A stretch of 64,000 bases of DNA from a virus (lineage: Duplodnaviria > Caudoviricetes). The DNA lies in IMG/VR virus record IMGVR_UViG_3300021426_000005; one strand, written 5' to 3'. Below, in pieces: positions 1,292 to 63,999 of the stretch. The position numbers and the translations under genes were made by a program. Numbering within the stretch: the first letter of the stretch is position 1; the number at the start of each line of letters is the position of its first letter. Under the pieces are notes generated by a model. The model worked only from the letters and a program-made list of their open reading frames with translations, was not told the origin of the DNA and searched no databases.

Positions 1292-1323
1292 AAAAAAGCA
1301 GAGGACGTTTAATCCTCTGCTTT
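1292..1323 (-). terminator. intrinsic terminator ending sheath operon
   Basis: AAAGCAGAGGA/TCCTCTGCTTT stem with U-tract on minus strand. Confidence 0.85.
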
Positions 1324-6094: not shown

Positions 6095-7402
6095 TTATCC
6101 TAACCAATTGATTGTGACCTTTGATCCGGTAGCCCCCCAAGGAGCACCAGAAATTGAACCAGATGACTTGTGAATGTTGATGGTGCAATCTTCCTTGACA
6201 CCTCTACCAGAAAACGCTCGGGCATTGATCGCTGTTACTGTACTTGGAATATCAATGACACATGATTCTGCAAACTCCGCACCAGCACGACCGCCTACTT
6301 CAAATGCGTTTTCACCAATAGACGTTACACCAGACTTTAATGTAATAGAAGTGAGTAGATTGCACCGACTACACATTCCCCGTGGAATAATTGATACAGT
6401 ACCAGGAATTTCTATTTCAGTAAGTCCAGAAGGCATATCCGATGATCCAGCAAAAGCAAATTCCCCAATTTCAGTAACAGTATCTGGAATTGTCACAGTG
6501 TTCAATGAGCTACAGCTGTAAAATGTATATGGTGTGATCTTAGTTATAGATGTATCTTCTAAATTCACAGATTGCAGTGATTGACAGAAGCCGAATGTAC
6601 CATAAGTAGCATTACTCATACTAGGGTTGTCAGAACCCAATGAAGTTAAAGATGAAGGTAGTTCAACGGTTTCAACACCAGAGCGCATGAAGCATCCGGC
6701 TTCTATTGATATCGTACCTTCTGGTATAGATACCGATTTCAAGGAACTACACGCACTAAACACATGATCTCCTATTACACTTAATCCAGATGAAAACGAA
6801 ACTTCACTCAATGCAGTACAACTAGCAAATGCAGATGCACCGATAGTTTCGACACTGCTAGGAATATCTATGGCAGTAAGCGATGCACAACCATTAAATG
6901 CACCAGATGGAATAGCTTTTAAGTTGGCAGGTAAGTTTACACTTTCCAAACTTTTGCAACTCTGACAAACACCACCGCCCAAAACGGCATTGTCTGGAAA
7001 ATCTATGGTTCTTAAAGCGCACTTAGAAAATGCACTCTTACCTATAGAAGTGCAAGTGTCAGGAATATTAATCGTAACCAATCCGGTACATTCAGCAAAT
7101 CCATAATCACCTATACTGATGATTCTCGCAGGGATAGACACAGTAGTGATCAAATTTCTACCGTAAAACCCATAATTACCTACCTTTGTCACACTCTTCG
7201 GAAATTCAATCGCAGTTATAGTGTTTTCAATCATCTTAGCCAGTGCATCTGTGTTATCATCAGGAACATCAGCATCAGGAGCTTTACTTATCTGCAAAAA
7301 ATCATTCGCATTTATAGGTCCAGGAACTGACTGAACGACCCCTGGCTCCATATCCTTACCGTAAAAAGTCTGATTCTCAGATGACATATTGATATAATTC
7401 AT
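6095..7402 (-). CDS. BspA-type (LRR_5) leucine-rich-repeat protein with N-terminal module shared with 3995..4207
   Basis: Many IPxxVTxIGxxAFxxCxxL repeats; C-terminal APWGA; likely start MNYIN. Confidence 0.9.
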   Translation of the reverse strand: MNYINMSSENQTFYGKDMEPGVVQSVPGPINANDFLQISKAPDADVPDDNTDALAKMIENTITAIEFPKSVTKVGNYGFYGRNLITTVSIPARIISIGDYGFAECTGLVTINIPDTCTSIGKSAFSKCALRTIDFPDNAVLGGGVCQSCKSLESVNLPANLKAIPSGAFNGCASLTAIDIPSSVETIGASAFASCTALSEVSFSSGLSVIGDHVFSACSSLKSVSIPEGTISIEAGCFMRSGVETVELPSSLTSLGSDNPSMSNATYGTFGFCQSLQSVNLEDTSITKITPYTFYSCSSLNTVTIPDTVTEIGEFAFAGSSDMPSGLTEIEIPGTVSIIPRGMCSRCNLLTSITLKSGVTSIGENAFEVGGRAGAEFAESCVIDIPSTVTAINARAFSGRGVKEDCTINIHKSSGSISGAPWGATGSKVTINWLG

Positions 7403-7413
7403 AGCCACAACAA

Positions 7414-7758
7414 TCACTCCATTTCGGATTTACTTTCTGTTATATAGTTGATCAACTCTAACTGAAATGGTTTAAGTTCATCAATTGAAGCCGCCGGATA
7501 GCTTGCAAAAAATCGCCCAACCATATCAAGTTTTAACTGATAATAGAGCATTCTGAGCATAACATCGGGTATCTCAGGGTGCTTCTCTACGAAGATGAAA
7601 TATCTGGTTATCGTACTACTGAATGCCTTGATATCATCAGGTCTAGCTTCAGATAGGTTTGCTTCTTTCAAAGCTCTGAAATTTCGACCATTATATTGTT
7701 TAAGCTCAGTGAAAAACTGAGTTGCTAAAGATGTATTAGAATCCACCAGGAGCACCAC
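7414..7758 (-). CDS. hypothetical protein
   Basis: ORF coupled to portal end. Confidence 0.65.
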   Translation of the reverse strand: MVLLVDSNTSLATQFFTELKQYNGRNFRALKEANLSEARPDDIKAFSSTITRYFIFVEKHPEIPDVMLRMLYYQLKLDMVGRFFASYPAASIDELKPFQLELINYITESKSEME

Positions 7759-9235
7759 CTTCCGTTGGTTCTTCCGTTACGTCAATATCCCAGCCGGAAG
7801 CATCTGCACCCATTTGAGGGAATGCTTCAGTAAGAATCTCGGTAAGACCCTTACGGAATGTATCTGCATCAACAATTCCGGCATCTTTAAGGAGCTGTAC
7901 AAGGGTTGTAGCCTGATTGAGTGCAGAATCACGCTTCTCAAACTGAACTGTAGACTGAGTAGTTACTATCGGGTTCATATGAAGTGTGAACTTATCCACA
8001 TACCCACTCATATTCTTAGCTCTGAAATACTTATTCAAACCCTCAGTCCAGCCTTCGATATATGCTGTCATAAGTCTTTGCAAAATATTAGCATATAGTG
8101 CAGATCTCTGAGACATTACGGTACCAGCCGCACCAAGTCCCTCAGCAGAAGAGAAGTTCATTGCTTCTTTAGGTATACCTAATACTGACAGCTTTTTATT
8201 CTGATAATAGTCAAGCAGCTTGTTGTCTGCTTCTGTAGTATCCGACATATTGAGATCAGTTATGGATATAGCATCTGCACCATTCACCTTTGGAAGATAA
8301 ATCAAGTTATTAGGTGACTGAGGATTTAAGAAACTTTCTGCACCACCGGTAGAAGTATTCATGGACAATTGCTGTTCAATAGCATTCTTCATCTGAAGAA
8401 GTGTATCTGCAATTTCCTCTTCCTCTGCACCAGAACAATCGACATTGATGAATTTTACCACCCGGATCAAAGAAGATAAAAGCATACTATCTTCCAAAAG
8501 CCCCAGCGTTTGTGTGGGGACAACTACGTTACCCATAAGTGGCTCTGCAAACTGTATGTCATAAGTAATTGGGTCTCCGGTACGTTTGTCGGTACCCTCA
8601 ATCGTATATTCACCAAGCAGACCACCCAGCGAAAAATGAATAATTGCGGAATCAGGATATATATTATACTCACGCACATTGGCATCCGGCTGATAGATAT
8701 ACCCTACCGGATTACCCATTTCCCAGATATGAAGTACATCCTCTGGTGGTATCTTATAGGATGGAATAATATCATATTCCTTATCCGGAATGGTATTATT
8801 ATCCAAAGCAACGCCACGCTGTACAGTTTTACTTGCCGAATCCTTATACATATCTGTAGTCGGTATATACAGATTGCCTATAGTAGCAAGTTCTAAGATA
8901 TGGTCACGAACATATGAATTGATCTTCCACTTCTTGAACAGGGTATTTATGAGATCAGCAAGGTCAGGATCATCCGATGTAGCCCATATAATCTGACCTG
9001 CGGAATTAGCAGTTGTAGAATCCGTAGCATAATATGAAAGTGCGGTACTGATTTGAGAATCAGCAGCAACGTTACGCATTGTTTCTATCTTCGATTTAAT
9101 GTCCAGAAGAGCAGTATTTCCTCGCATATCAGACATACGGATGAATGAGCCAGAAGCTATAAATCTAAGATATGATGTATGATGCTTCGGCTTCTCCATC
9201 CAAGAGCGTAGCCGCTTGATCAATTTATTTTCCAA
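7736..9235 (-). CDS. portal protein (T4 gp20-like)
   Basis: 499 aa near TerL; IIHF, LLEDSMLL..R, LDYYQNKKLSVLGIPK resembles the gp20 DxxYFxxKLxxALxIP region. Confidence 0.85.
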   Translation of the reverse strand: MENKLIKRLRSWMEKPKHHTSYLRFIASGSFIRMSDMRGNTALLDIKSKIETMRNVAADSQISTALSYYATDSTTANSAGQIIWATSDDPDLADLINTLFKKWKINSYVRDHILELATIGNLYIPTTDMYKDSASKTVQRGVALDNNTIPDKEYDIIPSYKIPPEDVLHIWEMGNPVGYIYQPDANVREYNIYPDSAIIHFSLGGLLGEYTIEGTDKRTGDPITYDIQFAEPLMGNVVVPTQTLGLLEDSMLLSSLIRVVKFINVDCSGAEEEEIADTLLQMKNAIEQQLSMNTSTGGAESFLNPQSPNNLIYLPKVNGADAISITDLNMSDTTEADNKLLDYYQNKKLSVLGIPKEAMNFSSAEGLGAAGTVMSQRSALYANILQRLMTAYIEGWTEGLNKYFRAKNMSGYVDKFTLHMNPIVTTQSTVQFEKRDSALNQATTLVQLLKDAGIVDADTFRKGLTEILTEAFPQMGADASGWDIDVTEEPTEGGAPGGF

Positions 9236-9257: not shown

Positions 9258-10796
9258 CTAATATACAAGGTTATTCAGGTCAGCATCGATGCCGTAAGCG
9301 GCAAAGAAAGCTACTTCATTAGAAATTGGAATTCCTATGTTCTTAGCGGCATTTATTGACTTTCCGTCAATATTCTCATTGGTACCACCGATAAGCACAC
9401 AATCTACAGAATTAGTGAATACGGATGTCACCTTAGCCGCATAGCTTGTAAGAATTTCAGCTATGTCCTTGTGGATAAAACTGCCAGTGATGTAAATAAG
9501 TTTATTCCGAAAAATAGGAGCACCGTCAAAACGCTTTTCAGATTCAACGATAGTAACATTTTCGGATTCCATTATAGTGATAAGTTCAGACACATTGAAT
9601 CCGTCCTCAAACCACAATATCAGCTTATCAACTTCTGGACCATGCAGATTGAGGTCAGATGTTATGAGACCAGGATTGTTGGCATAATATTTCACAGTTT
9701 CAGGATTAGATGCACAAGCCACTACGAAATCATGAATTGGTCTTGCATTTGGGAGAACTGAAACCGGTACAAGGGAGCGGATAATAGAAGATAATGAAGC
9801 TGTAATTTCAATACCACTAACTTTTTCTACAAGCAAAAAGTCTGATATAGAATTAAGTCTATCACCATACACTATATCTCGGATAGATGTTGAAGGCATA
9901 GGAAGATTAAGGACGGTCATAAAATGAATGATCTCCGGAATCAGCTTTGACCCACAATGTTTATTCTGACACTGAACAGTACCGTCCGTAGGTACATCAT
10001 AATACTTACCGCAGAACGGACATATCAAATGACTTTTATACTCAGACAGATCCCCAAATTTTGAATAAAAAATCTGGTGATGCTGATCCAGATATAGAAC
10101 AGTTCCGGCTGTCACACCGTACTTAGCTGCTTCGGTATAATGAAGATACATCTTGGAATCATTATCGGATAAAAGCACTTCGATCTTAACGTAGCCATTG
10201 TCATCTACATACTGTTTCTTCGACTTCACAATACACTGAGAAATACCCATACTACTTACTTCTATAGCTTCTCCACGGAAGATGACCATATCTGTAACTA
10301 TAGGGTTGAATGTAAATGTGGGATCACTCATCCACTGAGTAACCATGCTATCGGTTATAGCCGCTGGAACAAACCAACCAGGAAGTACATTGAACTTAGA
10401 AATCCTCAGATATTGACGAATATGCACATGACCGCTGAACCTCAAAGAAGTGCATTCAATGTTATATGCAAAGAAGTTAAAAGCATTAGGGTTGTCCAGA
10501 AAAGCTGATTCAAGATCAGATTCAATTGCACTTGGAAGTACACCGAATTTCTTGATCGTAGCATTGGTATACAGCACACCAATTACCCAGCTCGTCCCCT
10601 TCTGTAGAGAAATCCTTCCAGGTACTTTACCACTATCCAGCAGTTTGGTCATACAAGAAGCTGTAATATCTCTGCGGTTACTTGTGTTGCCAACAAATAC
10701 CTTTTCCAGATTTCCAGAGATATTGTACTGCAATGTCATGGGAAGTCCCAATGGTACCAGAGTAACAAAATCTCCAGGTTTAAGATTTTTGTTCAT
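9258..10796 (-). CDS. catalytically degenerate NAD-dependent DNA ligase homologue (adenylation-like, OB-like, Zn finger, BRCT)
   Basis: CPFCG..CQNKHC Zn finger, C-terminal BRCT (IYITGSF..KVTSVFTNSVDCVLIG..AAKNIGIPI); motif I KxDG reads VPLG; no Ia domain. Confidence 0.8.
   Translation of the reverse strand: MNKNLKPGDFVTLVPLGLPMTLQYNISGNLEKVFVGNTSNRRDITASCMTKLLDSGKVPGRISLQKGTSWVIGVLYTNATIKKFGVLPSAIESDLESAFLDNPNAFNFFAYNIECTSLRFSGHVHIRQYLRISKFNVLPGWFVPAAITDSMVTQWMSDPTFTFNPIVTDMVIFRGEAIEVSSMGISQCIVKSKKQYVDDNGYVKIEVLLSDNDSKMYLHYTEAAKYGVTAGTVLYLDQHHQIFYSKFGDLSEYKSHLICPFCGKYYDVPTDGTVQCQNKHCGSKLIPEIIHFMTVLNLPMPSTSIRDIVYGDRLNSISDFLLVEKVSGIEITASLSSIIRSLVPVSVLPNARPIHDFVVACASNPETVKYYANNPGLITSDLNLHGPEVDKLILWFEDGFNVSELITIMESENVTIVESEKRFDGAPIFRNKLIYITGSFIHKDIAEILTSYAAKVTSVFTNSVDCVLIGGTNENIDGKSINAAKNIGIPISNEVAFFAAYGIDADLNNLVY
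9262..9273 (-). promoter_or_regulatory. class II promoter word TAACCTTGTATA
   Basis: Upstream of portal start. Confidence 0.7.
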
Positions 10797-10812: not shown

Positions 10813-12738
10813 TTATTTGAATTTATTATACATTAGAGAAAATGCACCGCCTAAGCTGCTTGGGCTTCCAGGGTTCATTTTCTTTGATAATCCATTTACA
10901 GCAGCAATAGCCGATACTTTTGCTTTGACCGGAACAGGAACACCAGGATTGAGTAAAATAGCATTCCAAACACTTCCTGCCACAGAATCACTCATATCCT
11001 TACTACCACCAACTTCATGATCACAGATACCTGTTCCTGGATCACGTTTTAGGTGAGTAAGTTCGGTTTCAAGCAATTCCACATGAAGTAGGTCTATACG
11101 TTGTTCAAGAATAGCGGATTTCAAAGCATCGTAGCCATCAGATGTGCGATCCAGTGATATTTTTGCAGTATTAAATCCCTGTGCTTCCAAAAGCTGTGCC
11201 ATATATTCGCTCTGAAATTGATCTCGGCTAACACATGAAATATTAAACTTGCAGACGTTTCTCAGCCAGCAGATGAATTGATTGATTTTCATATAGGATA
11301 TTTTGTCACCTCTCGGAGCTTGTACAGCAATTGAGAACACATGACTGAAAGTTGGGACTGAAATCACTTTTCCTTTAAGGTCAATGTCTTTTCGTCCAGA
11401 TATCACTATTCCAGAAATACCGGATCTATCAGTAGTAAGCGATAAGTCAAGATGAATAAACATCGGCATATGTATCAAGCGAGAATCCACACATTCAAGA
11501 TGAAAAAACTCTTCTATCGACAGCTTGTCCTGAGTACCAACTTCAATAATGTCTTTGTAAAATGGATTTTTACGTTCACCTATAGCCTGATCAAGTAAAT
11601 CCTGCGTAATGAAGCTGAAAGAACCTTGGACAGTAATTCCGGCTATATCCCTCAATGCAACATCAAAATCAGACAAAAACCTAGTTTTATTATCTTCTGG
11701 AACATCCAGCAGTCTATATCCAGAATTTCGTAATTCCTCAAGACCTTCGGGCGTATTCATTTCATCACTTACAACAAAACTGCGTAGATGTTTTCCACCT
11801 AAAGCAATCTTGAAGGTTTTACTAGAAGAATACTTAGACTTTGGCCATACTTCCCACTGAGGTTTATCAAACACATACATATGTTGATTCCCAGCTTCTC
11901 TTTGAGACCTAACATATTCTTCCATAAAGTCAGAATCTTCACGCTTAGAGCTGATGACATAGATTTTACCGAAAACTTCTCCATTCTTGACAAAAGTACC
12001 TGTAACACGGGCTACCAGTGTATCGTACTTCTCTTTCATGGTTTTCTTTGCTTTAAGTACGTCCTTAACGCCAGCGTTTCCAAAATTGACCTCATCGAAG
12101 ATAACACAGTATGTGGCTTTTCCTAACGCATGACTTGCAGCGGATCCATATACGATTTCTATTAGTCCACCCTCTGGGATGTATGCCGGATTGGTTTCAC
12201 TATCAGTAAAATGTCCATGGCGTGCAAACCACTTACTTGTCTGCAAGGTCGATATAAATTCCTTGTATGCGACACCCTTAGCAAGAGTTTCCGTAAGATT
12301 GAAAAAGAAAAATGAAATTCGTGTAACTTTCTTCAAACCAAAGTATTCTTGGGGATTTCGCAAACACATTATCCTATATAGCTGGTATGCACCATCTGAG
12401 ACCGCCGTACTGGTTTTTCCTGTTCTTGTAGCACCAGTAAAAACTATCTCATAATACTGATTTCCAGTTTGTTCTAGCTCCTTCATAACATCAAGCCACA
12501 CTGGATATATAGATCTACCACAGTCATTGGAAGCACCTAAGAATTCTTCAGAAGTCAGAAATGTTTCCTTATCAACCGGAATTTCCTTATAATCAGCAAG
12601 CCATACATCTTCATAGGTTTTGGAATAGCCGGTTTCCGCAAGCTCTTTTAGTATAGTTCTAAGAACTTTCTGTTCATCCGGGGTACAGGTAGAGTATATG
12701 GCTTTAATTCGCTCAGGAATAGAATTGATATCTGTCAT
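10813..12738 (-). CDS. terL: terminase large subunit
   Basis: Walker A GATRTGKT, Walker B VIFDE, RNase H-like HLDLS..D, DQFQS, DH..GSKDMSDSVAG. Confidence 0.92.
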   Translation of the reverse strand: MTDINSIPERIKAIYSTCTPDEQKVLRTILKELAETGYSKTYEDVWLADYKEIPVDKETFLTSEEFLGASNDCGRSIYPVWLDVMKELEQTGNQYYEIVFTGATRTGKTSTAVSDGAYQLYRIMCLRNPQEYFGLKKVTRISFFFFNLTETLAKGVAYKEFISTLQTSKWFARHGHFTDSETNPAYIPEGGLIEIVYGSAASHALGKATYCVIFDEVNFGNAGVKDVLKAKKTMKEKYDTLVARVTGTFVKNGEVFGKIYVISSKREDSDFMEEYVRSQREAGNQHMYVFDKPQWEVWPKSKYSSSKTFKIALGGKHLRSFVVSDEMNTPEGLEELRNSGYRLLDVPEDNKTRFLSDFDVALRDIAGITVQGSFSFITQDLLDQAIGERKNPFYKDIIEVGTQDKLSIEEFFHLECVDSRLIHMPMFIHLDLSLTTDRSGISGIVISGRKDIDLKGKVISVPTFSHVFSIAVQAPRGDKISYMKINQFICWLRNVCKFNISCVSRDQFQSEYMAQLLEAQGFNTAKISLDRTSDGYDALKSAILEQRIDLLHVELLETELTHLKRDPGTGICDHEVGGSKDMSDSVAGSVWNAILLNPGVPVPVKAKVSAIAAVNGLSKKMNPGSPSSLGGAFSLMYNKFK

Positions 12739-13247
12739 TCAACATCACCCAATGCTTCAAGTACCGCCTGAGCTGTAGATCTAACCTTATCCCGGCTTTC
12801 AGAAGTCAGTAACTTAGAAGAAATCGAAGAATCTATAGTAGTGGCAGTAGAATCTACAAGGTCCACTACATTGAAACCTTGAAGATCTAGATATGGCTGA
12901 AGCAGTTTATGGGACTCAATCATGGCTTTCTGTAGCTTTTCCTGAATCCCTATCAACAAAGTAAGGGTATTCACATCACCAACATTCGCATTATCAATCT
13001 GATATTCAATGGAAGCATAGAGCTTATCTTCCAGCTTATCCATTAACTCAGTATATTTGATAATTCTAGTTAGCTGATGGTATACCCTCATTACAGTAAT
13101 ATTCTGAATGGCTCTTAGTGTAGGAATCCCATTTTCATCTGTGCATGACAATAAAGAGGTACGCATTTTTGCAACATCCTCTTTTTGCTTTGCTATCATA
13201 GGATCGACCATGACTTCTGCTGAGTTATCGAGGGTTTCAATGCTCAT
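12735..13247 (-). CDS. putative terminase small subunit
   Basis: Helical 170 aa ORF overlapping terL start; positional inference. Confidence 0.45.
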   Translation of the reverse strand: MSIETLDNSAEVMVDPMIAKQKEDVAKMRTSLLSCTDENGIPTLRAIQNITVMRVYHQLTRIIKYTELMDKLEDKLYASIEYQIDNANVGDVNTLTLLIGIQEKLQKAMIESHKLLQPYLDLQGFNVVDLVDSTATTIDSSISSKLLTSESRDKVRSTAQAVLEALGDVE

Positions 13248-15453: not shown

Positions 15454-15465
15454 TATAAAAGGTTA
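15454..15465 (-). promoter_or_regulatory. class II promoter word TAACCTTTTATA (packaging operon)
   Basis: Abuts terminator hairpin, heads the operon containing terL. Confidence 0.75.
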
Positions 15466-15494
15466 GCGGTGCAACTATTACAATTGCACCGCTA
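15464..15494 (-). terminator. terminator ending replication operon
   Basis: TAGCGGTGCAA/TTGCACCGCTA perfect 11-bp stem. Confidence 0.8.
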
Positions 15495-56559: not shown

Positions 56560-58311
56560 ATGGATATTTATAATATCGCTAATGAACTGAAACTTTCTCA
56601 TAAGACCATTCATGATATTCCGCTTAGAGTAACATTCTATGCTAGGGTTTCTACTACAAGAGAAGAACAAGAAGGCTCTATAGAGCATCAGATCAGCTTC
56701 TTTACTGAAATGATCCAGAATAATCATAATTGGACGTTTATTCCGGGTTATGTGGATAGGATCAGAGGGGAATCCGCATCTAACCGTGAAAACTTCATGC
56801 GTATGATTGAAGATGGGAAGAATGATAAATTCGATTTAATCCTGACGAAAGAGGTTTCCAGATTTGCAAGAAACACAATTGACAGCTTAACTTATACTAG
56901 AGAGCTATTACGCTGCGGTGTAGGTGTATTCTTCCAGAATGACGGAATTTGCACCATTGATACTGATAGTGAACTGAGACTAACTATCATGTCAAGTATA
57001 GCAGCTGATGAAGTCAGAAAGCTCTCAGAGCGTGTACATTGGGGACAGAAACGTTCAATTGAGAACGGTAGGGTCATGGGTAACAACCGTATGTATGGCT
57101 ATCACAAGTCCGACTGCAAATTAGTCATAGATGAAGCTGAAGCTGAAATGGTCAGACTGATATACCAACTATATGCTACCGGAGATTATAGCACCCGGAA
57201 AATAGAAAAAATCCTCTACGAAAGAGGATTTAGAAGCCGGAGCGGTACTAAAATTTTTCATGGGGTAATATCTGGAATAATTCAGAATCCTAAATACAAA
57301 GGATATTACTGTGGAAATAAGGTCCGAATAGTAGACTACAGAACAAAACAGCAGAAGTTTCTTCCGGAAGAGGACTGGATCATATACAAAGACGAAACCG
57401 GTGAAGTTGTTCCAGCTATAGTTTCAGAAGAACTCTGGGATAAGGCGAATGCAGTCTTCCAGGAAAGAAGTCAGGCTATTAAGGTAAGAGGGAGATCTTT
57501 CAAAGATAAAAGTCCATTGACCGGAAAGATCTGGTGCGGAGCTGACGGAAGTGCCTATTGGAGAACGAGCTATTCCAACAGCATCAAGATGGGAAGCCCA
57601 ATTTACCAATGGGTATGTAGTTCAAAGAAAAAGGACGGTGCAGCTTCTTGTAAATCATTTGCTTTAATGGAATGGGAAGTATACTACATCTTATCAAATA
57701 CATTCAAATCACTAGTAGATGATATAGATACTTATGTATCAGAATTTCTTGAACTCCTAAAAGCTACAGATCCTACCAAAGATGTACAGAAAGATATACT
57801 AGCACTAACAGCAAAAATTGATCAATGTAAAACAAAGAAAGATAAACTATTAGAAATATATATGGACGATGCTATATCTAAAGCTGAGTTCAAAGCTAAA
57901 AATGATGATTTCAATAGAAAGATTGAAGAATATGAAGGCGAAATCAATGACCTCAAGGAATTGAAATCCGACACAGCTATGACAAGCCGTAAGCTCCATG
58001 AGATTGAAAAGTCTATCAAGGGCATATATCAATCAGATGATGAAGTAATTCCGAAAGCTCAGTTGGACGACCTGATAAAGACTGTACTGGATAAAATAGA
58101 AGTTTATCCTGATACTGAGGATTCAATGATTCTTAAAATCTTCCTAAAAACTGGGTCAGAAACATCAGTAACTCATTCAAAAGACTTGCGTTGTTCTGGA
58201 CACATCAAACATATGATTAAGCCACAACAACAATACATATTCAAAAGAAATTCTATAAAAAGACAGCATCATGAATTCCAAATCAGATATGATGCTGAAA
58301 TATACATATAA
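56560..58311 (+). CDS. large serine recombinase (integrase)
   Basis: YARVST catalytic Ser, SRFARN, recombinase domain (NPKYKG), Zn-ribbon-like region and coiled coil. Confidence 0.95.
   Translation: MDIYNIANELKLSHKTIHDIPLRVTFYARVSTTREEQEGSIEHQISFFTEMIQNNHNWTFIPGYVDRIRGESASNRENFMRMIEDGKNDKFDLILTKEVSRFARNTIDSLTYTRELLRCGVGVFFQNDGICTIDTDSELRLTIMSSIAADEVRKLSERVHWGQKRSIENGRVMGNNRMYGYHKSDCKLVIDEAEAEMVRLIYQLYATGDYSTRKIEKILYERGFRSRSGTKIFHGVISGIIQNPKYKGYYCGNKVRIVDYRTKQQKFLPEEDWIIYKDETGEVVPAIVSEELWDKANAVFQERSQAIKVRGRSFKDKSPLTGKIWCGADGSAYWRTSYSNSIKMGSPIYQWVCSSKKKDGAASCKSFALMEWEVYYILSNTFKSLVDDIDTYVSEFLELLKATDPTKDVQKDILALTAKIDQCKTKKDKLLEIYMDDAISKAEFKAKNDDFNRKIEEYEGEINDLKELKSDTAMTSRKLHEIEKSIKGIYQSDDEVIPKAQLDDLIKTVLDKIEVYPDTEDSMILKIFLKTGSETSVTHSKDLRCSGHIKHMIKPQQQYIFKRNSIKRQHHEFQIRYDAEIYI
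58190..58231. repeat. imperfect inverted repeat, candidate attP inside integrase ORF
   Basis: GTTGTTCTGG-acac-ATCA-aaCAta-TGAT-taag-CCACAACAAC, symmetric about CA at 58210-58211. Confidence 0.55.
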
Positions 58312-60216: not shown

Positions 60217-60597
60217 TCAGTCAGGTTTCCAGCCATCATCCAGATAGCATTTATAATGTTGGCTGTTATCATATCGAACGGTTGGGACTTCCCTAAGCCC
60301 AAATTCAACCTTTATATCCGAGATCAAGTCATCCGGAACATTGGGATTCATGTATACTATAGGTTTCCCTTTGTTTGAAAAGTCTACACGACCTCTGGGG
60401 TAGTAATTATACGGCTTATTGCACCCCTTTGGTTTTACGTCCTGCCAGAGCTTCTTGTGATTATAGGTATTGCCAGATTTTGCTACACCTTGAGTATCAT
60501 AATCAATAAACGGAAATGCTAATAATTCATCATCTATGACCCAGAACACACCCCTAGTTGGTTCTTTCGCCATTGATTTTATATATAGCTTCATCAT
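60217..60597 (-). CDS. hypothetical protein (GVFW..H..W..YYPRGRV..HY) with MKLYIKS N-terminus
   Basis: Coupled to upstream P-loop gene. Confidence 0.75.
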   Translation of the reverse strand: MMKLYIKSMAKEPTRGVFWVIDDELLAFPFIDYDTQGVAKSGNTYNHKKLWQDVKPKGCNKPYNYYPRGRVDFSNKGKPIVYMNPNVPDDLISDIKVEFGLREVPTVRYDNSQHYKCYLDDGWKPD

Positions 60598-61217
60598 TCA
60601 TCAATCCTTTCCACATAGTCAAAGAATGCAGACAGCCATTCCGGTGGAGTTGATGTTGTCTGATCCATAGTATTAGAAATACGATTATACACAGCTACAA
60701 GTTGATACCCGTTGCTGCTATCATAGAATTTTGCCGTATCACAGTAGTCTAAAATTTTACTTAATTGTTCAAATCTATGATTATATCTACGGATAATCGT
60801 TTCACTTGGTATGTCGTGACCGCCATGCTTCACTCGGTTGGCTACCCTATCGATGCTATCCTGTGCGGAATTCAGACCGATATATATTAGGTTTATCGTA
60901 TACCCATGTTCCTTAGCTTTCTTAGCAGTAGCTATAATGTGCTTACCAGAAAGCGTAGTTTCTTCTGTAAATGCAAATCCATTTTCTATGCAATATTCAA
61001 TATCCTTTAATGCTTCTTTACCACCTTTGATATTGCCACCATACTTTATCGCATAGTCATCAGGATCTATAATTACACCGTATGATTCACTAGTTGTGCG
61101 CAAGATACCCATTGCTGAACTCTTTCCAACACCGTTTACGCCAGCAAGTATGGTGAATACCTTTTTCTTGACCTTAGTATCAACCACACTTATTATTCTT
61201 CTGATATACCGCTTCAT
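60594..61217 (-). CDS. zeta-toxin-like P-loop kinase/ATPase
   Basis: AGVNGVGKSS, DPD, ETTLSG, RVANRVKHGGHDIP..I.RRY. Confidence 0.85.
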   Translation of the reverse strand: MKRYIRRIISVVDTKVKKKVFTILAGVNGVGKSSAMGILRTTSESYGVIIDPDDYAIKYGGNIKGGKEALKDIEYCIENGFAFTEETTLSGKHIIATAKKAKEHGYTINLIYIGLNSAQDSIDRVANRVKHGGHDIPSETIIRRYNHRFEQLSKILDYCDTAKFYDSSNGYQLVAVYNRISNTMDQTTSTPPEWLSAFFDYVERIDE

Positions 61218-61862: not shown

Positions 61863-62924
61863 TCAATTTTCTATTATATTTACAACCGCAGGTGCATCTT
61901 CATCAGATTTAGTATTGATGAACATAGGTGCTACCCACTTAACTACTAACTTACGCTCAGGTGTATCACGCTTACCAGTCCAATAGTGGTGGAAGTGTGC
62001 TCTCCTGGTGTGCGGTCTCTTCCTTGAATGCTTAGTAATTGTTCGGGATCCGCCGGAATGTTCGGTGTTGCTGTTCTGACGAATGATTTGGCCAACTCTA
62101 TACCCTACGTCCCATTTTTGAATAGAACTGAGCTTATCCTTACGAACATTAGCTTTCTTGTATATTTTCTTCTGCTCTGGGTTTTCTACCACATCACTAT
62201 TGATAGCGCAGAGATAAAGAAGTATCTGCACAGCAGTATTCAGGTGCATACCTACATGAGTATCGACTTCTGCAATATAGGCTTCGGCTTCATCAGGTTT
62301 AAGCCTATCCTTTTGAGAGAATACTGCTTCACGGAATAGTTTTGTGTAACCTTCTCTGGATTCTTTTATAGTCAAACCTGGTGTCATCGAAATAGGAAAT
62401 CCAAGCACGTTTCCATTTTTCATCACAAACATGATATGAAGTGAATTGAGGAATTCAGTGCTTACGGTAGAAACGTTTTCACCCTTATCAAAGATTTGAA
62501 CGTTTCTGGAACAGAAGAATCCTTCGCAGCCTGATGAATAATCATGGATATCTACATAGAATGAATCATAAGGGAGATTTCTAAGGGATTCGATTTCAAC
62601 GTCATCACACTCAGACAAAGTGAGTTCTTCTATCAGTGTAGGATCAAATGTGTAGATCTGAGAATATCTTCTCCATGCCGCTAAGTGAAACAAATCCTCT
62701 ACGTTTATCCCCTTGGTGTGAAGATTGAGCTTGCTACTAAGTTCAACATAAGCAGTCAGCGGAAGATAACAGCAACTATCCCAAGTCATACCAGATTGCA
62801 TCATGACATCACGGAACATATCTACCATTTCAAATACATCACCGTATCCGGTATCTATCTTGCGAATTTCCTTGATACGCTGTAGCGGTAAAGGCTCTGC
62901 TATAGTTCTTTTCCTTTTAGCCAT
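61863..62924 (-). CDS. AcrVA2-family-like protein
   Basis: AAWRRYSQIYTFD, LRNLPYDSFYV, LLYLC, WDVGYRVG, RPHTRRAHFHHYWTG, KWVAP. Confidence 0.7.
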   Translation of the reverse strand: MAKRKRTIAEPLPLQRIKEIRKIDTGYGDVFEMVDMFRDVMMQSGMTWDSCCYLPLTAYVELSSKLNLHTKGINVEDLFHLAAWRRYSQIYTFDPTLIEELTLSECDDVEIESLRNLPYDSFYVDIHDYSSGCEGFFCSRNVQIFDKGENVSTVSTEFLNSLHIMFVMKNGNVLGFPISMTPGLTIKESREGYTKLFREAVFSQKDRLKPDEAEAYIAEVDTHVGMHLNTAVQILLYLCAINSDVVENPEQKKIYKKANVRKDKLSSIQKWDVGYRVGQIIRQNSNTEHSGGSRTITKHSRKRPHTRRAHFHHYWTGKRDTPERKLVVKWVAPMFINTKSDEDAPAVVNIIEN

Positions 62925-62943
62925 AATATCATCTCCTATATAT

Positions 62944-63097
62944 GACAACGATTTGTGGTTTTCACTATCCTAATTATATCATACCGTACATATATTTTCA
63001 ATTAGTAAGTTGCACAAAGTTACAATATCGTAATTGTGTATATAGTACATATTGACAATTACGGCATTATATGTTAAAATAAGATAGCATCGTTATA
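62944..63097. promoter_or_regulatory. divergent dual-promoter region: sigmaA plus class I word on each strand
   Basis: Minus: TTGAAA-17-TATAAT (63001-62973) and AATCGTTGTC (62953-62944). Plus: TTGACA-17-TAAAAT (63052-63080) and CATCGTTATA (63088-63097). Confidence 0.7.
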
Positions 63098-63543: not shown

Positions 63544-63999
63544 TTAGAATAATTTTCTGCTTTGGGATCTGATATACTCAGCGACCCTACGCTTGCCTAT
63601 ATCTACATAAGGTTCTGATTCTGAATTCATCAGTTCCATGTCAATGTAGGAAAGCTGATAGTCTTCTTCCCTATTCAGCTTTTCGCAGGCTACTGCATGG
63701 GTACATGATCCAGCGGTTATGTCGATAGTCATACCATGCTTCGGTGTAAGTAGCTTTATTAGCCACATTATCAGCTTTACTGGCTTTATGGTCACATGGG
63801 GATTTGCAGTACCATCTTTCAATATCTTTTCATCATTAGCTGGCTTAGGGCAGTATTTGAACACCGGGAACATTCTGCTTCCACCACCAATATCCCCACA
63901 GCCACCGTGATTGCATATATCAACTTCAGAACTTGGATTATACTGGCTATAACACCGTTTACCCATATTACCAAGGCTGTTTAATCCTGATCCTCCGGT
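63544..63999 (-). CDS. N6A/N4C DNA methyltransferase, C-terminal part (runs off window)
   Basis: HVTIKPVKLIMWLIKLLTP..IDITAGSCT (beta-class motifs X-I); frame open to window edge. Confidence 0.75.
   Translation of the reverse strand, partial: TGGSGLNSLGNMGKRCYSQYNPSSEVDICNHGGCGDIGGGSRMFPVFKYCPKPANDEKILKDGTANPHVTIKPVKLIMWLIKLLTPKHGMTIDITAGSCTHAVACEKLNREEDYQLSYIDMELMNSESEPYVDIGKRRVAEYIRSQSRKLF

Follow-up and report, generated by a model that had tools for sequence, protein, structure and literature searches.

A ligase-like protein predicted to be inactive is encoded between the terminase and portal genes of uncultivated gut phages

What would a phage do with a protein built like the bacterial NAD+-dependent DNA ligase LigA, yet lacking the residues for ligation? 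The question is raised by a gene at 9258-10796, minus strand, of a 64,000-nucleotide stretch (the window) of IMG/VR virus record IMGVR_UViG_3300021426_000005 (Duplodnaviria; Caudoviricetes), where it lies between the genes for the large terminase subunit (TerL) and the portal. We call its 512-aa product (P0001) the pseudoligase. An initial annotation, made from the letters of the window, had described a catalytically dead, repurposed LigA homologue in the packaging operon, and had supposed that it encircles DNA as a sensor of nicks or ends. The first claim is borne out by the residue map, the selection estimates, the gene order and the LigA genes found elsewhere in related genomes; the second is disfavoured, and a non-enzymatic adaptor or scaffold acting in packaging is tentatively preferred.

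The gene is a single unbroken open reading frame (ORF) with an ATG start, preceded at 9 nt by a GGAGG ribosome-binding site, and a stop codon at 9258-9260 (ORF list and translation). The full-length uninterrupted frame had been read correctly at the outset, except that the strand is minus; the plus-strand frame over the same interval is riddled with stops. Searched as a single sequence, P0001 matched no Pfam family at E ≤ 0.01, no PDB sequence and nothing in 50,697 phage records. The lone match, a weak one, joined its last 75 residues (BRCT) to the PHROG NAD-ligase family (E 1.5e-6), so that detecting its homology required profiles and structure. Its family comprises 137 clusters at 90% identity and at least 280 clusters (representatives) at 50%, with lengths nearly all of about 500-560 aa and identities to P0001 down to 28%.

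An alignment of 46 family sequences (A1) was used for profile searches and for an AlphaFold (AF2) model, whose mean predicted local distance difference test score (pLDDT) is 91. The A1 profile matches E. coli LigA (2owo) collinearly through the zinc finger, the helix-hairpin-helix (HhH) region and the BRCT domain (E 3.6e-6); the BRCT part aligns to 2owo residues 598-664 and also finds the isolated LigA BRCT chain 1l7b (E 0.0039). Pfam BRCT is detected in 34 of the 46 members (best E 2e-9). In Foldseek the model best matches LigA structures of full length (E 7e-18 to 2e-10). In VIA-align, which shows a nucleotidyltransferase (NTase) fold followed by an oligonucleotide-binding (OB) fold, model residues 1-185 lie on the LigA adenylation domain (about 87-318; Z 11-11.5, root mean square deviation about 4 Å, 174 residues) and residues 1-419 on LigA 85-586, with the BRCT matched separately; 3sgi covers residues 7-256, OB fold included, and the BRCT domain matches a Rad4 BRCT at Z 10. 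Aligned by hhalign to a LigA profile of seven sequences (E. coli LigA plus six from phages or metagenomes), the family gives a local probability of 98.9%, with E 1.2e-17 over 492 columns. The LigA-like domain order first proposed (NTase, OB, C4 zinc finger, HhH, BRCT) is confirmed by these comparisons. The N-terminal NAD+-binding domain Ia is absent, as was first noted from an ORF that begins at motif I: model residue 1 corresponds to LigA residue 85-100, the hhalign match starts at LigA profile column 103, and a search of P0001 with PF22745 (Nlig-Ia) gave no match.

All domains lie on the minus strand. An NTase (adenylation)-like domain without Ia occupies residues 1-185 (10242-10796), as placed by VIA-align and the motif map described below, and an OB-fold-like domain residues 186-255 (10032-10241), as placed by hhalign. 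The C4 zinc finger (residues 256-284; 9945-10031) is defined by conservation and the LigA alignment, and the HhH-like helical domain (residues 285-419; 9540-9944) by the structural alignment up to LigA residue 586. A basic linker and the BRCT domain form residues 420-512 (9261-9539), on the evidence of profile matches to LigA BRCT, Pfam BRCT and conservation.

Key residues of E. coli LigA, chosen in line with mutational work from the Shuman laboratory, were mapped through the hhalign alignment onto 254 full-length family members. The motif I lysine, K115, is V14 in P0001 and V, I, L, M or A in the family (157, 42, 26, 15 and 8 members), and is lysine in none of the 254; the loss of the lysine first seen in P0001 thus extends to all of these members. 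Also in motif I, D117 has become L16 (V, I or L across the family). E173 is V74 in P0001 (V or I in the family), D285 is T, S or M in the family, K290 is F173 (F or Y), and the position of K314 is a gap. The former nucleotide pocket is now hydrophobic. Within residues 1-255 no position conserved in at least 95% of members is K, H, D or E, and the best-conserved lysine, K32, is lysine in only 189 of 254. The structural glycines G118 (G17 in P0001), G172 and G335 are retained in 99%, and C259, C262, C276 and C281, aligned to LigA C408, C411, C426 and C432, are invariant in 254/254; the initial calls of a C4 zinc finger and a BRCT domain both stand. With the catalytic residues of motifs I, III, IV and V gone, P0001 is predicted from its sequence to be a LigA-derived pseudoenzyme unable to self-adenylate or to seal nicks.

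Loss of catalysis has not been followed by loss of the gene. The ratio of nonsynonymous to synonymous substitution rates (dN/dS) is 0.05-0.13 in 30 close gene pairs with dS of 0.1-1.0, which come from few sub-groups and are non-independent; distant pairs, with saturated dS, were dropped. Pooled by domain the ratio is 0.101 (NTase), 0.082 (OB), 0.056 (zinc finger), 0.070 (HhH) and 0.073 (BRCT). Purifying selection is strong in every domain and the gene is not decaying, to which the uniform length of the family likewise points; the neutral decay of homologues that would have spoken against a repurposed protein is not seen. Among the 254 members the BRCT domain is the most conserved and the OB domain the least.

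The position of the gene is equally constant. In the window, TerL (641 aa; 10813-12738, minus strand) lies 16 nt upstream and was identified by PHROG TerL and by tblastn (E 1e-70), in which about 90% of the protein aligns to annotated TerLs at 32-37% identity. A T4-like portal (499 aa; 7736-9235, minus strand; Portal_T4 PF07230, E 8.7e-9), with its own GGAGG site, lies 22 nt downstream, so that both intergenic gaps are short and carry GGAGG sites, and a sheath gene (PHROG) follows further downstream of the portal. A terminator-like hairpin with a 14-bp stem and a T run (15464-15494, minus strand) separates the replication block from the late block, and another with a 12-bp stem and a T run (1295-1323, minus strand) closes a block of genes that starts near 15.1 kb and takes in TerL, the pseudoligase, the portal and the sheath. 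No terminator of comparable strength was found on the minus strand between 15.46 kb and 1.32 kb, and the pseudoligase gene is probably on one late transcript with the terminase, portal and sheath genes. The initial placement of the gene in a packaging operon, apart from replication genes, holds for its neighbours; the caveat is that, on this strand, the first clamp-loader and UvsX-like genes are only about 6 kb upstream, beyond the 15494-15464 hairpin.

The same arrangement recurs in relatives, as the initial annotation had proposed to check. In five distant metagenomic loci the order is TerL, zero to two small ORFs, pseudoligase, zero or one small ORF, and portal. The family alignment retrieved 63 IMG/VR loci; in 50 of these TerL ends just ahead of the pseudoligase, and a portal homologue starts 0-270 nt past it in 67/67 loci (the 63 and four of the distant metagenomic ones). 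Starting instead from a portal alignment, we found the pseudoligase directly upstream in 79 of 80 loci, the 80th having no upstream DNA. Because 79 of the 80 loci found by portal alone carry it, the pseudoligase is a core gene of this portal group, a large set of contractile-tailed gut phages of about 120-215 kb. Names of metagenome-assembled genomes hint at hosts among the Clostridia (Ruminococcus, Lachnospiraceae). A cultivated family member was sought in the 50,697 phage records and none was found; in Bacillus phage HSE3, the nearest cultivated relative by TerL and portal, TerL is followed directly by the portal.

Ligation itself seems to be provided for elsewhere in most of these phages. 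Fifteen related IMG/VR genomes were searched over their entire records; most carry a completeness rating of 100%, and many have terminal repeats. In 13 of them a reading frame of 629-705 aa, lying 60-100 kb away from the pseudoligase, scores above cut-off with PF01653 and encodes a canonical LigA; the N-terminus is of the Ia type and motif I reads KLDG in the four resident LigAs that we inspected. The two complete genomes G005 and G014 have the pseudoligase and no LigA, from which we argue that the role of the pseudoligase is independent of a resident LigA. No ATP-dependent ligase was found in the five related genomes where one was sought, and no canonical LigA in the window or in contigs L001, L017 and L242 (about -0.7 to 83 kb in window coordinates). 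One deposited virus in BFVD has both proteins, A0A8S5UC97 (the pseudoligase, labelled 'BRCT domain-containing protein') and A0A8S5UCE9 (LigA). A recent duplication of the resident phage LigA was considered and rejected: the family hidden Markov model scores resident LigAs at a median of 15 bits, against 29-41 bits for E. coli and unrelated phage LigAs. Since resident LigAs score no better than unrelated ones, the pseudoligase appears to be an old copy, or one separately acquired.

Domain Ia, the part that the pseudoligase lacks, occurs alone in the lineage of the window. On close contigs a 107-aa protein (P0257; PF22745, E 1.4e-27) beginning MKANALF is encoded on the minus strand at L017:13772-14095 and L242:14650-14973, which corresponds to about 66.9 kb in window coordinates, just outside the window; the pseudoligase gene is on the same strand, about 57 kb further downstream. 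It retains most of the positions that contact nicotinamide mononucleotide. Solo Nlig-Ia proteins, known in 81 phages, have been suggested to act in NAD+ sensing or shielding (Iyer et al. 2022, PMC9503650); they resemble the pseudoligase in being a piece of LigA standing alone in phages with a proposed role other than ligation, and differ in being the complementary piece. A link between the two proteins was examined and rejected. In ten other family genomes PF22745 was found only inside LigA-size frames (643-679 aa), with no solo frame of about 100 aa; the sets of IMG/VR contigs with solo Ia and with pseudoligase do not overlap; and the solo-Ia region is not syntenic with the LigA regions of relatives. 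Because ten genomes lack solo Ia and the contig sets are disjoint, the role of the pseudoligase cannot depend on it. The gene after solo Ia encodes a 339-aa radical-SAM-like protein (CxxxCxxC) that begins MYNKLF.

Would the pseudoligase still grip DNA as LigA does? The positions of the LigA DNA-contact residues R136, R200, R208, R277, R333, T334 and R379 are non-basic in the family; in the OB domain R333, T334 and R379 have been replaced by acidic or neutral residues, with G201 (LigA G335) kept. The Gly-hydrophobic-Gly hairpins of the HhH domain are lost, G455 being Y, F or K, G553 being S, N or Q, and G489 and G521 falling in gaps. Of the charged positions conserved in the HhH domain, one is basic (K391) and three are acidic; the domain has a median net charge of -6, a figure that does not discriminate because LigA itself is acidic. 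Conserved basic residues are instead clustered in the zinc finger (K264, R284) and in the linker and BRCT domain (K421, R422, R430, K432, K485). The linker and BRCT domain also conserve an invariant T437-G438 dyad, G470, E494, F497/F498, D504 and D506. Judged from these residues, the zinc finger, basic linker and Thr-Gly dyad could still bind phosphate or a DNA end.

We tentatively propose that the pseudoligase acts as a non-enzymatic adaptor or scaffold at the late DNA-packaging or head stage, and give this a probability of roughly 35%. The zinc finger, the basic linker and the BRCT domain with its Thr-Gly phosphate-binding dyad would form the ligand-binding end. The ligand would likely bear a phosphate, for example a 5′-phosphorylated DNA end or a nick made or met in packaging. 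The NTase-OB-HhH body, with its hydrophobic pocket, would be a rigid spacer to which proteins bind; the loss of the DNA contacts and the acidic HhH domain speak against a DNA-encircling clamp of the LigA type. In a stronger form of this proposal, which seems to us distinctly unlikely, the packaging machine would need the protein as an obligatory third component, and its BRCT and zinc finger would read 5′-phosphate ends or nicks and link the terminase-portal motor to the integrity of the DNA or the handling of its ends. To our knowledge such a packaging factor has no counterpart in T4, lambda, P22 or phi29.

Several points weigh against an adaptor or scaffold in packaging. A physical tie of the pseudoligase to terminase, portal, DNA or virion is putative, and its conserved position may simply reflect gene order inherited within a single phage group. 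In our reading of A1 no conserved residue of the BRCT domain takes the place of the alpha-2 lysine in the classical phosphate pocket. Longer, fused or split forms of the pseudoligase were searched for and none was found, so no fusion ties it to a partner. In the same loci it is 25-45% identical between relatives, against 40-66% for TerL and 54-71% for the portal, and such faster evolution is unusual for a stoichiometric part of a machine. A complex prediction for full-length TerL with pseudoligase residues 250-512 scored 0.00 ('no support') and is not used as evidence either way.

Three known systems help to place the protein. With LigA itself (E. coli 2owo and 5tt5; E. faecalis 1tae) it shares the fold, the domain order, the three structural glycines and the four zinc cysteines; unlike LigA it has no domain Ia, catalytic motifs, DNA-contact arginines or HhH glycine hairpins, its BRCT domain is the most conserved part, its gene is in a packaging operon, and a true LigA usually coexists with it. 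The closest functional analogy may be the inactive ligase domain of poxvirus A20 (vaccinia) and A22 (monkeypox virus), a structural part of the polymerase holoenzyme; residues 67-310 of vaccinia A20 have been described as 'an inactive DNA ligase domain' (bioRxiv 10.1101/2023.09.03.556150). In those proteins a viral NTase-OB ligase module has lost catalysis and serves as a scaffold, and A20 and A22 chains are among the Foldseek matches of our model (E 4e-7 to 1e-5), a likeness at the level of the fold with no sequence relationship. The poxvirus proteins have only NTase and OB, flanked by domains that bind uracil-DNA glycosylase and polymerase, and act in the replisome, whereas the phage protein keeps the zinc finger, HhH and BRCT and adjoins packaging genes. 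In the T5-like heterodimeric NAD+ ligase of phage PR1 (9hu3/9i5i), LigA-derived phage proteins again have rearranged modules, subunit B being a non-catalytic piece with zinc finger and HhH, and both subunits match the P0001 model. The two PR1 halves, encoded together, nevertheless make an active enzyme, with the motif I lysine in the A subunit (Ia-NTase-OB), whereas the pseudoligase is a single chain with TerL and portal as neighbours and no adjacent gene for a catalytic partner.

These comparisons bear on the alternatives. A pseudoligase that wraps DNA in the LigA manner, and that senses nicks or ends or protects ends in packaging, would suit the complete clamp architecture, zinc finger and BRCT included, and the place of the gene between TerL and portal. 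T4 encapsidation is also said to require ligase-sealed DNA, a result attributed to Zachary and Black in 1981. The initial annotation leaned this way, but the non-basic contact positions, the lost or gapped HhH hairpins and the single conserved basic HhH position against three acidic ones make the wrapping mode unlikely in our judgement. Doubtful for other reasons is a role as an accessory of replication, repair or recombination, for instance one that partners or regulates the resident LigA, the host LigA or the phage beta-type clamp, the present position of the gene being a historical accident. The replication genes 6 kb upstream on the same strand, the coexistence of canonical LigA in 13/15 genomes, the replisome scaffold of the poxviruses and the heterodimeric T5-type ligases all suit such a role, and phage OB-HhH-BRCT proteins without an adenylation domain are common in the ESM Atlas. 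Against it, two complete genomes keep the pseudoligase without any LigA, the terminator-like hairpin splits off the replication block while the gene is tightly packed with TerL and portal, and an NKLF-type tag is seen at neither end of the protein.

Counter-defence would make the pseudoligase a LigA-shaped decoy for a host factor that recognises ligases, or a partner of the phage's own NAD+-sensing solo Ia. The lineage of the window does have a solo Nlig-Ia, exactly the domain that the pseudoligase lacks, and the sensor or shield proposal of Iyer et al. lends the idea some background; the disjoint contig sets and the absence of solo Ia from ten related genomes, the hydrophobic residues of the nucleotide pocket and a core-gene status unusual for counter-defence genes leave it very improbable. 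A virion protein, internal to the head or associated with portal or neck, packaged and perhaps injected with the DNA, would agree with the late operon next to the portal, the strong ribosome-binding site and the core-gene status. With no cultivated member in the 50,697 phage records and, as far as we know, no precedent for the LigA fold as a capsid component, we see only a slim chance of this. Still harder to credit is a ligase that remains active through an unconventional nucleophile or one supplied in trans: the complete fold is kept and the lineage has a separate Ia-like protein, but none of motifs I, III, IV and V survives, and residues 1-255 hold no invariant lysine or histidine, K32 included, so that we regard this as extremely unlikely.

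Other features of the locus deserve mention. A 170-aa all-helical protein (12735-13247, minus strand) overlaps the TerL start by 4 nt and is a candidate small terminase by position only; it is conserved upstream of TerL in 50 loci, and its AF2 model, made of long helical hairpins, had no match below E 1 in a Foldseek search of the PDB. TerL is 774-1069 aa in loci L003, L018, L051 and L080, against 641 aa here, probably through inteins or other insertions, and an intein is annotated in the TerL region of Bacillus phage HSE3. Two genes past the portal, in the structural block, a 440-aa BspA-type leucine-rich-repeat protein (LRR_5, E 2e-73) is encoded at 6095-7417 on the minus strand; it occurs in some relatives at other positions. 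At the far end of the window a methyltransferase-like ORF (63544-63999, minus strand) runs off the edge, and its C-terminus, ...SQSRKLF, could be a clamp-binding tag for a phage beta-type clamp. By Pfam, the L017 counterparts of three window frames are a large serine recombinase of 583 aa (56560-58311, plus strand), a weakly matched Zeta-toxin-like ATPase of 207 aa (60594-61217, minus strand) and an AcrVA2-like protein (61863-62948, minus strand) of 353 aa, against a 361-aa frame here. At L242:5788-7937 genes for a UvrD-type helicase, a toxin-like protein of the PemK family (149 aa) and an SMC/AAA_23 protein (604 aa) lie in that order.

That dead enzymes are reused as scaffolds is already known, and poxvirus A20/A22 is the case for a dead ligase. 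In targeted full-text literature searches we found neither a full-length LigA pseudoenzyme nor a ligase relative fixed between terminase and portal described. The public labels 'DNA ligase' and 'BRCT domain-containing protein' mean that automatic annotation over-credits these phages with a ligase; family member A0A8S5UEV8 in BFVD/UniProt is labelled 'DNA ligase' although the family has no catalytic residues, an annotation error that is propagating. The phages that have the pseudoligase as a core gene are abundant, uncultivated phages of the gut. If it does act in packaging, it would be a new accessory factor for a well-studied machine; if it does not, it would still be a clean natural case of LigA scaffold repurposing and a candidate BRCT-based binding module in phages.

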